Shown here piece by piece: positions 17,952 to 25,920 of a stretch of 64,000 nucleotides of DNA (positions within the stretch are counted from its first letter, which is position 1; each line of letters begins with the position of its first letter). This stretch comes from Promethearchaeota archaeon (GTDB lineage: Archaea > Asgardarchaeota > Hermodarchaeia > Hermodarchaeales > Hermodarchaeaceae): positions 1 to 64,000 of the forward strand of contig JBHLPR010000004.1 in the NCBI GenBank assembly GCA_048939245.1, given 5' to 3'. The notes under the pieces were generated by a model. It was not told where the DNA came from. It ran no database searches and worked only from the letters and a program-made list of their open reading frames with translations. Both the position numbers and the translations under genes were made by a program.

Positions 17952-19340
17952 ATGTCCAAAGAAGCCTTTGACAAACTAGAGAACCGAATCCTCTCACGTT
18001 TAGATCCACAGGATCGACGCGATGTGCGGAGCTTACTCCGGAATGTTACACTCTTTATTAGACGAATTGAGAGGACACACCTTAGTGAAGGAGAAAAGAA
18101 CTACCCGAGTCATCCACTTTTCTCTCACAGAGACCAAAAAGGAGGGCAAAATACAGCAGAAACCTTGCGTTATCGTTTACAATTTGTTGACCGATTTCAC
18201 ATTGATAAGAAGCAATACATCATCGATGTGTTGACCCAAAACGTACCCATGGGAGGTAAAAAACAATTATCAACCCGTAAAGCGCAAATCCTTTGGCAAT
18301 TATTTCAAGATCCAATCATACCAAAATACCAAATTGCGAAGAAAATAGGTACGACACCTCGCACAGTTTCGAAGGATTTAACGGAACTGGAACAGGATTA
18401 TGCACTGCGCGTTTTCACGAATATTGATCCACATAAATTCCATTTAACCATGCGCATCATAATGTTTGAGACTTACTCCTTTAATCATACTAAGAAGTTG
18501 GAAAAATTTGTATCAAACCATCGTGGGTTTCTACTATACTTTCGACTCGATCAAGACATGCGTCAAGGAACTGTCACTTTTCGTTATCCAGACCAGCCAA
18601 ATGGGCATCAAATGTTTGAGAAACGATATAGCTGGCTTAATGATGAATTCTTCAAAGAATCTTATCAGATTCAAGCCCTCGGACTATACCAATCGATTTC
18701 TTTCGAGATGTATAACCCAACAATACATGCATTCTCAATCGAACCAGAAATAGTGTCACAAGTTCCCTTTGATTACAGTAGGCAGTCCATAGATACTCTT
18801 CCGCAACCTCGTGGATTTGACTTCACCGAGTCTTTTGATTTTGATCAAGCAGATTTTCTGTTATCAGGAATCTTGTATTCATCTGGACCTCTTACACACC
18901 CGGAGTACAAACAAAATTTGTTAGCCCGATTTGGAATTAATTACTCGATGAAAACAATCTGGAAAAAACAGCAACGTTTACGAAAGGAGAAAGCGGGGTA
19001 TCCGATGATTGAATTACAAATTCCGGGCTTCGATGAAGATATGATGCTAGTTGTATTCTGCACACCTAAAGCTACTTCAGCGATTCGTGCCATCTCTGCT
19101 TTTCTTCCATCAGTGATGTTCATCAATACCAATTCTGGCTGCCTATTGCGGATTCAACGCCCTGTTCACACATCTGCTCTCACAGGTCAACTGATTCGGA
19201 AAATCCATAATCAACAAGGAGTAACTGATGTCAAACTACTTCGCTACAAACAAAGATTACAAACACCATTATTACCTGCGATTGTCAATCGATGGAATGC
19301 AGCAGAACAAGAATGGCAGCTTGAAGAAGGAGACATTTAG
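17952..19340 (+). CDS. Large double-HTH (tandem Lrp/AsnC-like) putative transcription regulator, paralog 1
   Basis: HTH KYQIAKKIGTTPRTVSKDLTELE; second HTH-like YSMKTIWKKQQRL; Trp-containing motifs closing each half. Homologous to 19359-20792 and 24484-25920. Confidence 0.65.
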   Translation: MSKEAFDKLENRILSRLDPQDRRDVRSLLRNVTLFIRRIERTHLSEGEKNYPSHPLFSHRDQKGGQNTAETLRYRLQFVDRFHIDKKQYIIDVLTQNVPMGGKKQLSTRKAQILWQLFQDPIIPKYQIAKKIGTTPRTVSKDLTELEQDYALRVFTNIDPHKFHLTMRIIMFETYSFNHTKKLEKFVSNHRGFLLYFRLDQDMRQGTVTFRYPDQPNGHQMFEKRYSWLNDEFFKESYQIQALGLYQSISFEMYNPTIHAFSIEPEIVSQVPFDYSRQSIDTLPQPRGFDFTESFDFDQADFLLSGILYSSGPLTHPEYKQNLLARFGINYSMKTIWKKQQRLRKEKAGYPMIELQIPGFDEDMMLVVFCTPKATSAIRAISAFLPSVMFINTNSGCLLRIQRPVHTSALTGQLIRKIHNQQGVTDVKLLRYKQRLQTPLLPAIVNRWNAAEQEWQLEEGDI

Positions 19341-19358
19341 TCCACAAGGAGAGACAAT

Positions 19359-20792
19359 ATGATGACACTAAAACGAATTCAAACTGTAGGAACAAGAAAC
19401 TCGCCTTCCATCGACTCAGATTTCATTGAAAATATAATATCGCGTTCTGAACCAGTAGAGGACCGAGATGATCTCCGCCAATTTCTCACAAATGTTCGTC
19501 TCTTCATTAAACGGGTGGATGGATTTGATTTAACCGAAGAAGAAAAAGAATATCCTGCGCATCCCCAGTTCAGCCACCTTACATTTAGAAAAGGAAAGAA
19601 TACAGCTGAAGGTCTTAAAGCCCGATTGAGAACTATCGATCGGTATCAGATTACGAACGTTCAGCAAATAATAAACATCATTGCGTCAACAGCCGTCTCA
19701 AGTCAAATGGAAAGCCTTACACTTCGACAGATTCGTCTTATTGAAGAATTGCATAAAAAGCCTTTAGCAGCTCAATATGAACTCGCTGAGAGACTTTTCA
19801 CTACATCGCAGGTAATTCGACAGGAGTTGACACAGCTCCGTCAAAATTTCTCTTTGGCCGTTCTCTATGATTTTGACTGTCACAAATTTCGACTAAATTC
19901 TTATGAGATAGATTTTCGCACTAAATCGCTTGATGCGTCTCAAGAATTGGAAACATATTTTCGGAGAACCCAGCCCACCTTTTTACAGCGCCTTAATTTT
20001 GACCATAATTATCGTGATGGATTCTTCTATTATTTCATACCAGATCAACCATCAGGGCAAAGAATGTTTGCAGAACGAGTAGAATGGTTGAATTCCAATT
20101 TTCTTGAAGATTTATCGATATTTCAGGTCCACAGTTTTCAAATTGACATCTCATTCGAAAATTATAATCATTTGACTGGAACATGGATGCTCAACGCAGA
20201 TACCTTCTCAGCCGGAATGCTCCAGTTCTTATCACACCAAGAGCGAAGCCAGCTTCCGCCCCGTGGAATGATATTTGGTGACTTTAATCGTTTTGATAGG
20301 ATTGATTTCATCATTGTGTCCACAGCATATGTCTTTGGGAAAAAGCGATATACGGATATTTGTCAGAAAGTGTTAGAACGGCACGGCTACTCATTATCTA
20401 GAAAAACAATATGGAATCGACTGAAGAAACTGTACCAGATGGGCACGATTTATCCATTGCTTTGGTATGATATTCCTGACTTTGAAGAGTTGGTCAAGTT
20501 TAGTATTATTTGTACTCCAGAGGCAATAGAACCGATTTACCGGCTCATTTCAATACTTCCGTACACCTACTCTTTAAGAACAGATGTAGGCATAACGTTC
20601 ACGTTTCAAAGACCCAGTCGTTGTACTTCAATCACCGGATTATTAGTGGAGACATTTGATCAGATTGAAGGCGTTTCCAACATCAAGATAATCCGTTATG
20701 AACCCACCTTTAGCCCACAATTGTCTACCAAAACGGCAGACCGATGGGATGAAAGCCGCCAACGTTGGTTACCCCAGAAAGGCGACATCTAA
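19359..20792 (+). CDS. Large double-HTH putative transcription regulator, paralog 2
   Basis: QYELAERLFTTSQVIRQELTQL; LSRKTIWNRLKKL; same C-terminal W...W...GDI as paralog 1. GGAG SD. Confidence 0.65.
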   Translation: MMTLKRIQTVGTRNSPSIDSDFIENIISRSEPVEDRDDLRQFLTNVRLFIKRVDGFDLTEEEKEYPAHPQFSHLTFRKGKNTAEGLKARLRTIDRYQITNVQQIINIIASTAVSSQMESLTLRQIRLIEELHKKPLAAQYELAERLFTTSQVIRQELTQLRQNFSLAVLYDFDCHKFRLNSYEIDFRTKSLDASQELETYFRRTQPTFLQRLNFDHNYRDGFFYYFIPDQPSGQRMFAERVEWLNSNFLEDLSIFQVHSFQIDISFENYNHLTGTWMLNADTFSAGMLQFLSHQERSQLPPRGMIFGDFNRFDRIDFIIVSTAYVFGKKRYTDICQKVLERHGYSLSRKTIWNRLKKLYQMGTIYPLLWYDIPDFEELVKFSIICTPEAIEPIYRLISILPYTYSLRTDVGITFTFQRPSRCTSITGLLVETFDQIEGVSNIKIIRYEPTFSPQLSTKTADRWDESRQRWLPQKGDI

Positions 20793-23263: not shown

Positions 23264-23454
23264 CAATGGTGTGGAGGTAACCAAGAAAGGGGAAGAAACC
23301 CTATCTTTTAGTAATAATACAGTAGGCCCCAGAGCCCTTCTTGGTCAATTTCCCACTGGTCATTTTCGCTTTTTCCCGACGCAGCCCATGTAAACCAGTC
23401 GAACTCTGCCCCAGTGCAGGCGAGAGACACTGGGACAGAGCACTGTGACTGGTT
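23264..23454 (-). ncRNA. Structured 3' region (two long hairpins) downstream of the small-protein operon
   Basis: 14-bp stem 23403-23416/23428-23441 (2 G-U pairs on the minus strand) closed by 8-bp 23393-23400/23447-23454. Second stem 23279-23290/23335-23346. Confidence 0.5.
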
Positions 23455-23800
23455 AAGTGGCTTCATCGAGGACTAAGCTAACAAATTTACCCAATCGACC
23501 CGTGTGTTGAATAGCCTTGATCAGTCGGGCCTCGTGCGTCGACTTCTTGACAAGAAGATGATTCTCTCGGACGACAGCGAGTTCCGTGAGAAGGTCATAG
23601 AGTCGACGTAGTTCAACTCGATCGACTTGCTCAGAAAGGCGTTCCAGGAGGCGGAACACATCGGTCATTTCAACCTTCTCGAGCTGGTCAAGTTGCTCCG
23701 TGACATTATGCGACCGCAAATAGGATCGGGCTAGTCGTAAAATTGGGTCGCTTGCGTTTTCTGTCCCTGTGGTCACGGCAATTCCCCTCAGAGTCGCCAT
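23453..23800 (-). CDS. Hypothetical alpha-helical protein (115 aa)
   Basis: ATG 1 nt after the stop of the upstream ORF, with GGGGGTG SD. Amphipathic helical sequence MATLRGIAV...HEARLIKAIQHTGRL. Confidence 0.65.
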   Translation of the reverse strand: MATLRGIAVTTGTENASDPILRLARSYLRSHNVTEQLDQLEKVEMTDVFRLLERLSEQVDRVELRRLYDLLTELAVVRENHLLVKKSTHEARLIKAIQHTGRLGKFVSLVLDEAT

Positions 23801-23801
23801 G

Positions 23802-24065
23802 TTACGCACCCCCGATGCTGGCGACGTTAGAGATTTCTTGACCATTGGGCTCAACGCGTACGCGAACTCCGCTGGGAGTCGCTTCAACGATGACCCGACC
23901 ATTAAGGCCGCAGGTATCCTTGACTAATTCTAATAGCAAGGTACCAATTGCTCCGATTTCTCGGAGGTCTTCACATCCCGTCTTCGGGGTAATACAGAGA
24001 TCAATTGGGTAGGCGTCCGTGACGCCAATCATTCGCTGGGTTTCTTCCATCAGTTCTGTAGCCAC
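23802..24065 (-). CDS. Hypothetical small protein (87 aa)
   Basis: GTG start 6 nt after AGGTGGAG SD (MATELMEETQRMIG...). Beta-alpha-beta-beta pattern; translationally coupled to the next ORF. Confidence 0.65.
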   Translation of the reverse strand: MATELMEETQRMIGVTDAYPIDLCITPKTGCEDLREIGAIGTLLLELVKDTCGLNGRVIVEATPSGVRVRVEPNGQEISNVASIGGA

Positions 24066-24083
24066 TTTTTTCTCCACCTTTCT

Positions 24084-24248
24084 AAACACAACTAGGAAAA
24101 ATAAGAACGTGAACACAATGCCGTAGTGATATTCGTACTGAGCAAGCCAACTCAGTTTATCCGTTCTTTAGAACGGCCAAACATCAGATGTCCACGGACC
24201 CATTGTGCGTTTTTCACATCCGGTAATTTTTCCCTTGCGAGTGTGTTT
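24084..24248 (-). ncRNA. Candidate cis-regulatory leader RNA (long nested stem ending in a three-way junction)
   Basis: Mutually nested helices 24084-90/24242-48, 24095-102/24226-33, 24106-09/24208-11, 24114-20/24201-07, 24121-26/24192-97 and 24127-34/24179-86, plus hairpins 24137-56 and 24161-76. G-U pairs are valid only on the minus strand. Confidence 0.6.
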
Positions 24249-24270
24249 GCTGGAATCTATTACAAACAAT

Positions 24271-24313
24271 GGATACTAGCCTTTAAGTATCCGTTCAGAG
24301 AGCGGTGAACGGA
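24271..24313. promoter_or_regulatory. TATA box (minus strand TACTTAAAG) with two abutting inverted repeats
   Basis: GGATACT-N8-AGTATCC (24271-24292) and TCCGTTCA-N8-TGAACGGA (24290-24313). Confidence 0.55.
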
Positions 24314-24483
24314 GCTGACAAAAAAGCCGATTCATCGAAAAAAACCATCCAGAGCTTAGAATAGACTTTAAACACGTTAATGGTGATGCATTCCTGTAAC
24401 AGGATTTTGAGTCATCTTCTATAATTTCAACTTTTCGTCAAAAGGAAACTTTTTATGCCTGTTTCTTTCTTTCTGACGATGGT

Positions 24484-25920
24484 GTGGCGCGCGTGCAATC
24501 GGTGGTTGAAGTAGCAGATTTACTCTCATCATTGAAGCACAATATTCATGAAAATATGCGCCCAAGCGAAGAACTATTCGAAATAGATCTTTTACTCGAT
24601 AATCTGAAACTTTATGCAAAACGAGTGAAAGGTGTACCACTTAACGAAGAAGATCACAGGCTCCAACCGTACAAAGAATTCGATGGCATGGTTGTGACAC
24701 CTCGCGAACGAACGTATAATTCGTTGTTGCGACGACTTAAGGTCATCCTTCGATTCAACATCACTTCTTATGAGAAGGTTACCCGGGATCTATTACGGGG
24801 ATTAATCTCTGAAGAAGCCGATCGGATAACTGGAAGAGAAATCCGGTTAATGACGTTGCTGTATCAACGCCCCAACACGCCGCAGGCACAAATGGTAAAA
24901 GAGTTGAATGTCAGTCTGCCTACGATACGAAAGGACATCAAGACCTTAGAAGAGAAAATTGGTTTAAGGTTTGCCAATATGGTTGACTGGGGACGGTTTA
25001 AATTACGGCATTACGGGATTTTCTTCATTACCTCAGGTGTTGAAGCATCGAAGAATCTCGCAAAGGTCCTAAATGAAGAGATGTCCACTTATTTGAGAAG
25101 AGTGAATTTTGATACAACATTTCAGAGGGGCTTTGCCGGTTTTCTGATCCCGGATCAAGGAAAACCCACACAACTCTTTTCAGAGCAAATTAAATTGTTA
25201 AGCGAAAAGTTCTTCGAAGAGCACCAGCTCCACCAAATTAAGAAATACAACCAATCGATTTGCTTTGATCATTTTGACTATGAAACCAGCACATGGATGA
25301 TTGAAGGTGATGTTTCAACTCTCGGCCTTCTTAATTTTGTACGGGAAAACTGGGCGATTCTTCCAAAGCCACGAGGGTTATCCAATACTCTAGCACGTCC
25401 TTTCGATGACCTTGATTATTATCTTGCCTGTTTATTAGGTGGGGATAGTAATGCACCAATGAAGAAAATTTTAAGCAGATTAGAAGCAGTGGGAATCAAA
25501 GCACCTCGAACAACTGTATCTACACGAAAGAACCGTCTCCACAAAGAAAGGACATTGGAACCCTTTTTCACTTTTGGGACGCCACAACTCCCCTTTTTCA
25601 TTACTTTTGCAATTAGATGCGAGCCACATATTGCAGAGCAGCTGGCTGTGGCTGTTGCACAAATGCCACAGGGTTTCGTGTCAATTTCGAATATGGGTTG
25701 TGTTATTAATGTGTATGTGCCCGCAAGGAGCCTCGGAACTATTCTAAATCTTCTTTCACTAACACTTGAGGAGGAGGGAGTTCATGAGGTGTGGCAGATG
25801 CAACAGTATCGCAATATGGGATCTTATGGACCTGCACGAATTGCTCATAAGTGGAATGGGTCATATTGGACCTGGTCTGAGGATGAATTCGCTCTTCCAT
25901 CTTTGGGACTCGAGTTCTAA
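24484..25920 (+). CDS. Large double-HTH putative transcription regulator, paralog 3
   Basis: QAQMVKELNVSLPTIRKDIKTLE; PRTTVSTRKNRL. Shares the N-terminal domain and FK-L, IPDQ, SICFDHFD...W and PKPRG motifs with paralogs 1 and 2. Confidence 0.65.
   Translation: MARVQSVVEVADLLSSLKHNIHENMRPSEELFEIDLLLDNLKLYAKRVKGVPLNEEDHRLQPYKEFDGMVVTPRERTYNSLLRRLKVILRFNITSYEKVTRDLLRGLISEEADRITGREIRLMTLLYQRPNTPQAQMVKELNVSLPTIRKDIKTLEEKIGLRFANMVDWGRFKLRHYGIFFITSGVEASKNLAKVLNEEMSTYLRRVNFDTTFQRGFAGFLIPDQGKPTQLFSEQIKLLSEKFFEEHQLHQIKKYNQSICFDHFDYETSTWMIEGDVSTLGLLNFVRENWAILPKPRGLSNTLARPFDDLDYYLACLLGGDSNAPMKKILSRLEAVGIKAPRTTVSTRKNRLHKERTLEPFFTFGTPQLPFFITFAIRCEPHIAEQLAVAVAQMPQGFVSISNMGCVINVYVPARSLGTILNLLSLTLEEEGVHEVWQMQQYRNMGSYGPARIAHKWNGSYWTWSEDEFALPSLGLEF

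Follow-up and report, generated by a model that had tools for sequence, protein, structure and literature searches.

A conserved proline-rich mini-ORF in the structured 5' leader of a small Asgard archaeal operon: a possible hairpin-gated first cistron

The window analysed here is the whole 64,000-nucleotide stretch at the start of an Asgard archaeal contig (Hermodarchaeota MAG), with a gene content that includes a gelsolin-repeat protein, CofE and a RimK-type ligase. On its minus strand, an RNA-like element lies between a TATA-like box (24288-24280; ACTTAAAGG, with CATATAAAGG in most relatives) and an 87-aa ORF. The box is a putative promoter element, with TAAAGG columns that are invariant and lie 22-24 nt ahead of the conserved transcript start (14 genomes). 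Conservation of the leader sets in at AGAUUCC, 26-27 nt past the TATA centre, and the transcription start site (TSS) was therefore predicted to lie at the base of the hairpin, near 24258. The resulting leader, delimited by sequence conservation, would span about 193 nt (24066-24258, minus strand) at the 5' end of an operon encoding proteins of 87 and 115 amino acids. An invariant Shine-Dalgarno sequence (the main SD, AGGUGGAG, 24072-24079, minus strand) precedes the start codon of the 87-aa gene at 24065-24063, which is GUG here and AUG at the same position in one relative. The leader is single-copy in its own genome, ruling out a repeat or MITE. In 13 of the 14 genomes of the genus, DNA similar to the leader was found immediately ahead of the 87-aa orthologue, and for comparison we used 20 distinct leaders, metagenome contigs included: 18 from the genus and two distant ones, L068 and L069.

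The 87-aa gene (23802-24065, minus strand) is coupled to the 115-aa gene (23453-23800, minus strand), the two being adjacent in 18/18 genomes of the family; the 87-aa protein itself was detected in 17/18. A profile search returned further homologues in the families f8, f12, f14 and f26. The 87-aa protein had no sequence match in Pfam, NCBIfam or the PDB, and its AF2 model (pLDDT 77), which shows a beta-alpha-beta-beta core, found no Foldseek match below E 0.19; neither it nor the 115-aa protein has a recognisable family or fold match. The 115-aa gene has a paralogue elsewhere in its own genome. A 122-aa paralogue of its product is encoded by a gene whose neighbours are an ArsR-like HTH gene on one side and a radical-SAM gene on the other (C45:1-2200, locus L078, and L080), at a locus with neither the 87-aa gene nor a mini-ORF of the kind described below.

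Divergent from this operon lies the gene for a 478-aa regulator (24484-25920, plus strand; paralogue 3 with HTH_11/MarR matches), for which Pfam and NCBIfam gave HTH-type matches only. Homologues of the regulator were found in 51 of the 151 Asgard genomes sampled. Within the 2.5-Mb genome there are eight large double-HTH paralogues in two subfamilies (about 470 and about 577 aa), encoded in the window (17952-20792 and 24484-25920), at C39:4600-8200, on contig C81 and at C9:64600-66100, and having a common Trp-rich C-terminal tail. The notion that the 115-aa protein is a copy of the N-domain of these regulators was unsupported (BLASTP E 0.08-0.3). Two blocks of the intergenic region are invariant in the genus and constitute candidate operators: AGUUUCCUUUUGACGAAA (24421-24460, minus strand) shortly before the start of the regulator gene, and UUUUUUGUC(A/C)GCUCCGUU (24308-24325, minus strand) some 35 nt ahead of the TATA-like box.

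The first-pass annotation of this DNA had described the element as a long nested leader RNA. The minus-strand helices it named all exist in the sequence: the basal helix AAACACA/UGUGUUU (24248-24242 with 24090-24084), GGGAAAAAU/AUUUUUCCU (24234-24226 with 24102-24094), CACAAUG/CAUUGUG (24208-24201 with 24120-24113), CCGUGG/CUACGG, UGAUGUUUG/CGAAUAUCA, and hairpins at 24176-24161 and 24156-24137. In the minimum free energy (MFE) structure GGAUGUGA/UCACGUUC takes the place of the proposed AACG/CGTT pairing, and a 4-bp UCCA/UGGA helix extends into the main SD; the basal helix ends, as had been noted, 4 nt ahead of AGGUGGAG. A 211-nt stretch carrying the element folds with an MFE of -67.8 kcal/mol (z -4.73), a value that 0/200 shuffled sequences equalled, and the plus strand reaches a z of only -1.55, so that the strand specificity claimed for the fold holds in this genome. 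Such extreme stability is peculiar to this genome among the 20 orthologous leaders. For the whole leader the z-score is -5.7 here; the remaining 17 leaders of the genus range from -1.0 to -3.9, and L068 and L069, the two most distant, which come from metagenome contigs, lie at about 0. In 15 of the 20, folding is stronger for the sense strand than for its complement.

Conservation of the fold is uneven along its length. The 5' arms of the basal helices H0-H2 (24226-24254, minus strand; partners 24073-24102) are near-invariant in sequence, and on the alignment 81-94% of cells are paired in H0-H3, where columns are mostly invariant, changes are one-sided G-C/G-U exchanges and compensatory pairs are few. 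The corresponding value is 60% for H4 and 34-58% for the apical helices. The apical helices, the three-way junction and the hairpin at the stop codon (24161-24176) occupy 24121-24197 (minus strand) and belong to this genome and a few relatives only, the stop-codon hairpin being found in about 6 of the 20 leaders. The three-way junction reported in the first-pass annotation can thus be drawn for this sequence but is not kept among relatives. An alignment-free comparison of the coding strand with its own or a foreign 3' partner strand gave duplexes of -9.9 versus -8.7 +/- 3.4 kcal/mol, and by this test no co-evolution of the two strands was found. With poorly paired apical helices, this null result and the absence of the fold in the sister genus, the expectation of a junction core supported by covariation fell away. 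The pseudoknot or switch suggested between GAUGU and ACAUC fared no better, since its pairing is at the level of chance (-9.4 versus -8.4 +/- 1.8 for codon shuffles) and is not conserved in the 20 orthologues (mean z +0.48).

What is conserved at the same place in all 20 leaders is a short open reading frame of 10-14 codons. In the window it comprises 11 codons and UAA (MGPWTSDVWPF; 24168-24203, minus strand), with its AUG inside H4 (24201-24208 with 24113-24120). Nucleotides diverge between leaders, length differences are whole codons, and the peptides carry proline at codon 3 or 4 and again at position -2 or -3 in 20/20, most ending in proline, an aromatic or aliphatic residue and the stop, and some in P-x-x-stop. 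All four synonymous proline codons are in use at the first conserved proline. At the last proline, the leaders of this genus use no codon other than CCG or CCC, two codons that make up 40% of proline codons genome-wide, and the rare CCG codon is enriched (46% versus 12%). This restriction hints at a constraint on decoding or at the RNA level; it is limited to this locus and this genus, and the rare-codon argument was dropped as a general one.

An SD-like site accompanies the mini-ORF in every leader. Here it reads GGAUGUGA (24214-24221, minus strand), matches GGAGGUGA at 7/8 positions and forms the 5' arm of H3, whose partner is 24105-24112; across the 20 leaders, GGA(U/A)GUGA or GGAGCUGA stands 6-9 nt ahead of the AUG. 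Because the MAG contains no 16S 3' end, the anti-SD assumed for these sites is the general archaeal one. A mechanical ORF list also gives a 104-aa ORF (24116-23802, minus strand), which arises because in this genome the mini-ORF and the 87-aa gene share a frame with no stops between them. Fusion of the two by stop-codon readthrough was rejected, the spacing being a multiple of three in only 6/20 leaders.

The mini-ORF is bracketed by structure. Its SD-to-AUG segment forms a stronger duplex with the 3' strand of the leader than with shuffled sequence in 20/20 leaders (duplex z below 0, mean -1.8), and a stable hairpin begins 1-14 nt past its stop codon in 23 of 24 leaders (mean z -1.8). In the window this is ACUGAGU...GCUCAGU (24137-24156, minus strand), 11 nt past the stop; at least five unrelated sequence versions of the hairpin occur across leaders. 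The window from main SD to start codon, touched only by the 4-bp UCCA/UGGA helix, is on average 63% unpaired. The conserved helices are thus predicted to hide the ribosome-binding site (RBS) of the mini-ORF and not the main RBS. A ribosome footprint forced onto the start or the stop of the mini-ORF left the main SD unpaired at 0.63, unchanged, or lowered it to 0.51. Unmasking of the main SD by a ribosome on the mini-ORF gained nothing from this constrained folding, a thermodynamic treatment that cannot capture kinetics. Directly past the 3' arm of H3 lies a run of five U residues (24097-24101, minus strand), a possible terminator element. Runs of at least four U residues occur in 18/18 leaders of the genus, and of five or more in about 13; the run is missing in L068, L069 and the sister genus, and a general U-run terminator model was therefore set aside.

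Sequence constraint in two parts of the element goes beyond pairing. The 5' 35 nt are near-invariant, as is a stretch of about 70 nt around the main RBS that begins with the U run and extends to the end of codon 11 in the 87-aa gene. In codons 2-11 (24033-24065, minus strand) the minor-synonymous fraction is 0.04, compared with 0.27-0.29 in codons 12-30 and 51-70 (16 genomes). Pairing alone would not demand such invariance, which suggests a sequence-specific binder of the DNA or of the RNA; the invariant basal blocks may have a protein-binding role. Codons 74-86 of the 87-aa gene are likewise frozen, probably owing to the RBS of the 115-aa gene.

Outside the genus, the mini-ORF and the fold part company. 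In the sister genus the leader sequence is unrelated, yet 4/4 genomes carry a proline-rich ORF of 12-13 codons behind a perfect GGAGGUGA or GAGGUGA (e.g. MAPRIPPKPEPW). In three of these four genomes (L039, L040 and L042) the mini-ORF is preceded, at a distance of about 110-190 nt, by a conserved and highly structured 5' domain that has GAGGGAAGGAGACC-like blocks in common and no match in Rfam. In f8 a 9-codon ORF (MYPQDPFPV) lies 16 nt ahead of the 87-aa homologue, and in f26 an 11-codon ORF (MDPYSDDPFPF) lies 28 nt ahead of it; f12, with a Pro/Gly-rich 11-codon ORF upstream of the homologue, is a weaker case. Both f14 genomes encode a longer form of 40 codons: its N-terminus is basic, a hydrophobic segment of 23 residues follows, and the C-terminus reads A-D-P-Q-D-P-W-P-x-G-stop, which shares the D-P-x-D-P-W-P motif. 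It is the only form with a signal- or TM-like segment, and it looks like an exported or membrane-anchored version of the peptide. The f14 ORF (L113:1128-1250, minus strand, and L142) stands 17 nt ahead of the 87-aa homologue and is divergent from a 472-aa regulator homologue. Judged from these comparisons, the mini-ORF appears to be kept beyond the genus, more weakly, in four further Asgard families. Since it occurs across families and the long hairpin only in the genus, we take the mini-ORF to be the ancient first cistron of the operon and the hairpin a later, genus-specific wrapping.

In f1, f8, f12 and f14, the mini-ORF operon and a regulator homologue are arranged divergently. A scan of the own genome revealed three more proline-rich mini-ORFs with GGAGG-type SDs, all on contig C81 (C81:8200-12800; L082:4200-8800) around two tandem HTH paralogues of 577 and 578 aa. 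Like the window locus and f8, f12 and f14, these three loci show a mini-ORF next to a regulator gene. One of the three, MWPPSRPEPF, has a degenerate tandem copy, lies upstream of the 578-aa HTH gene and is followed by a hairpin and U run. The other two, MYPQRDPFPS and MYPAPGDEPGPL, adjoin the 577/578-aa paralogues and look like stand-alone mini-genes, each with TATA box, SD, ORF and T run. MWPPSRPEPF and MYPQRDPFPS, the two copies examined in relatives, are kept there as near-identical peptides. A genome-wide regex scan for similar mini-ORFs gave no enrichment (51 matches versus 36 in the reversed genome; 4 versus 4 with an SD), and the case for the C81 mini-ORFs therefore rests on their clustering, mutual similarity and conservation. 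Two of them are convergent with neighbouring genes, making antisense transcripts possible, and a T-run-G motif resembling the candidate operators of the window precedes the TATA box of the C81 mini-ORFs.

Taken together, these results point to the proline-rich mini-ORF, and not a ligand-binding fold, as the functional core of this leader. The account we put forward, with a probability of roughly 0.45, is that of a hairpin-gated mini-cistron, first gene of its operon, whose output is the peptide. H3 and H4 would pair the SD and AUG of the mini-ORF with a strand transcribed about 90 nt later, and H0-H2 would join the 5' end to the sequence just ahead of the main SD. Because the mini-ORF RBS is weak (7/8 SD) and paired with the later strand, ribosomes would load on it mainly co-transcriptionally, before the 3' strand has been transcribed, or when the hairpin opens, while the RBS of the 87-aa gene would stay largely accessible. 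The fold would thereby act as a gate limiting translation of the mini-ORF and would probably also shield the 5' end of the mRNA. The short proline-rich peptide would act with the divergently encoded double-HTH regulator. We infer from sequence and predicted structure, then, a start of transcription at the hairpin base, translation of the mini-ORF, its gating and a role for its peptide. A peptide product is favoured by residue-level conservation across paralogous loci and families, by the stand-alone copies, by the signal/TM-bearing f14 precursor and by the constant link to one regulator family. Against this, one would hardly expect ligands that are 9-14 residues long and lack an export signal, and the fast divergence of the peptides at this locus within the genus would fit a stall element in which few residues are required equally well. 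Nor does gating account for basal blocks that hardly vary, or for the frozen first ten codons of the main gene.

Three other readings of the element appear improbable to different degrees. The fold itself might sense a ligand or a protein, as the first-pass annotation supposed in proposing riboswitch-like or protein-binding translational control, and the mini-ORF would then be incidental to it. A conserved, structured mRNA leader with the anatomy of translational control is indeed present, the fold is very stable and strand-specific in this genome, the 5' 35 nt and the 70 nt at the main RBS are invariant beyond the needs of the helices, and the 87-aa product could be a putative RNA binder regulating its own mRNA. 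The ligand fold is the part that did not stand, with an apical junction that is not conserved and a switch pairing at chance level; z-scores in relatives are modest, and the mini-ORF persists in the sister genus and other families where the fold is absent. The annotation had recognised no matching family, and this was borne out by Rfam: neither the window nor six related loci gave a hit that reached the gathering score, and at E<=10 nothing meaningful appeared over 23900-24600. On this balance a sensor RNA is a poor candidate. We give very little credence to the idea that the basal arms are instead the half-sites of an operator for the divergent regulator, a DNA-level inverted repeat with the RNA fold as by-product: the basal helices are pure Watson-Crick, near-invariant and start at the predicted +1, but G-U pairs and one-sided G-C/G-U changes occur in H3 and H4, the sense strand is the better folder in most leaders, and the half-sites would be about 125 bp apart. 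It is similarly far-fetched, in our estimate, that the element is a CreT-like small RNA toxin, kept transcriptionally silent by the neighbouring regulators, in which an SD, a proline mini-ORF and a hairpin jam ribosomes or tie up tRNA-Pro. SD, mini-ORF and downstream hairpin are all required in the proline-codon CreT of Pseudomonas and in haloarchaeal CreT, which combine a strong SD with two consecutive proline (or rare) codons before the stop and are repressed by Cascade-CreA (bioRxiv 10.64898/2026.06.02.729485; PMC8501985). That anatomy, including the proline codons of the P. aeruginosa CreT and the stabilising hairpin, is matched here, and the stand-alone C81 copies carry strong SDs. In the window, however, a helix encloses an SD that is itself imperfect, proline codons alternate and none are consecutive before the stop (the ORF ends P-F-stop), the ORF heads a conserved operon, and no CRISPR-like CreA, nor any cas context, was apparent; the only repeat-like Rfam hit, CRISPR-DR19 at 24424-24449, was below threshold (16 bits, E 8.6) with a sequence unique in the genome.

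The alternative that deserves the most attention is a cis-acting attenuator in which the act of translation, and not the peptide, is the signal; we consider it rather unlikely. Decoding or termination at the proline-rich end would be slowed according to Pro-tRNA, aIF5A, Mg2+ or a small ligand, and this slowing would set how the leader folds and hence how far the 87-aa gene is translated or transcripts terminate at the U run; in f8, f14 and f26, where the next SD directly adjoins the ORF, a paused ribosome would occlude that SD or couple to it. A short leader ORF with its own RBS and conserved proline codons, always first on the transcript, is what was found in 20/20 leaders and in 4/4 genomes of the sister genus. 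Proline is conserved at codon 3 and beside the stop, a length of 9-14 residues fits inside the exit tunnel, structures overlap the mini-ORF RBS and follow its stop, a hairpin and U run stand between a C81 mini-ORF and a regulator gene, and the enrichment of CCG and the CCG/CCC-only last proline in the genus point the same way. There are precedents in bacteria, where MgtL has proline at codons 3, 5, 7 and 9 and depends on EF-P (PMC6460261), and in eukaryotes, where eIF5A aids termination and translation of proline motifs (PMC5499558). On the other side, a footprint on the mini-ORF does not raise the predicted accessibility of a main RBS that is hardly hidden, and the U run is missing in L068, L069 and the sister genus. 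Two C81 copies have no gene behind them, and the terminal motif is P-aromatic-stop rather than a strong stall of a documented kind, PP-stop for instance. The f14 form, moreover, places a conserved signal/TM segment ahead of a cytosolic-looking gene. Comparison with MgtL and MgtP of the Salmonella mgtA and mgtCBR leaders (PMC6460261) cuts both ways. All are short ORFs with their own SD in a long structured 5' leader, with proline at codon 3, alternating proline codons and overlap with leader helices; in the bacterial case of MgtL the output is transcription that depends on Rho or an attenuator, whereas constrained folding gave no ribosome-dependent alternative fold here, the partner in place of EF-P would be aIF5A, and stand-alone and signal-peptide-bearing copies, seen here, are not known for MgtL. 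SecM, MifM and VemP are force-sensing arrest peptides that control secretion or insertion factors. The f14 form resembles them in its N-terminal hydrophobic segment and its C-terminal proline motif directly before the SD of the next gene; it differs in that this gene encodes a small soluble-looking protein, and arrest is only putative.

Returning to the mini-cistron with a peptide output, the closest parallel is with the RRNPPA cassettes of Bacillota and phages (PMC9765709), in which a tiny gene for a fast-diverging peptide adjoins that of a cytoplasmic HTH regulator, as it does here. RRNPPA propeptides can occur in tandem (PMC11343458), and one locus here, on C81, has tandem duplicated peptide ORFs; the f14 precursor, with its hydrophobic N-terminal segment and conserved C-terminal motif, adds to the likeness. 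Differences are that the regulator is not a TPR protein, having HTH hits only (Pfam, NCBIfam), that most versions have 9-14 residues without an export signal, and that the operon contains two extra small genes. Export, processing, re-import and receptor binding in the manner of RRNPPA are putative. An extension that we advance tentatively, with the odds against it, is an Asgard peptide circuit: the proline-rich peptide of 9-14 residues would be the ligand of the divergent double-HTH regulator, the f14 peptide would be cut from or anchored by its 40-aa precursor, and the hairpin of the genus would set the peptide dose.

In summary, several Asgard families conserve a mini-ORF of about 10 codons that invariably stands first in one type of small operon, next to a member of one regulator family. 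In the literature searched, we found no paper describing such leader or mini-ORF elements in archaea, and neither leader-peptide or uORF control nor peptide-receptor signalling for this domain. Other 'structured leaders' with a variable apex may conceal micro-genes that are missed by gene callers and by RNA-family scans alike. Looking forward, two questions become testable on a defined 200-nt element, namely sensing based on ribosomes and uORFs, and the use of peptide ligands, in the closest archaeal relatives of eukaryotes. If the peptide circuit proved true, Archaea would have their first described cassette for peptide-receptor signalling.
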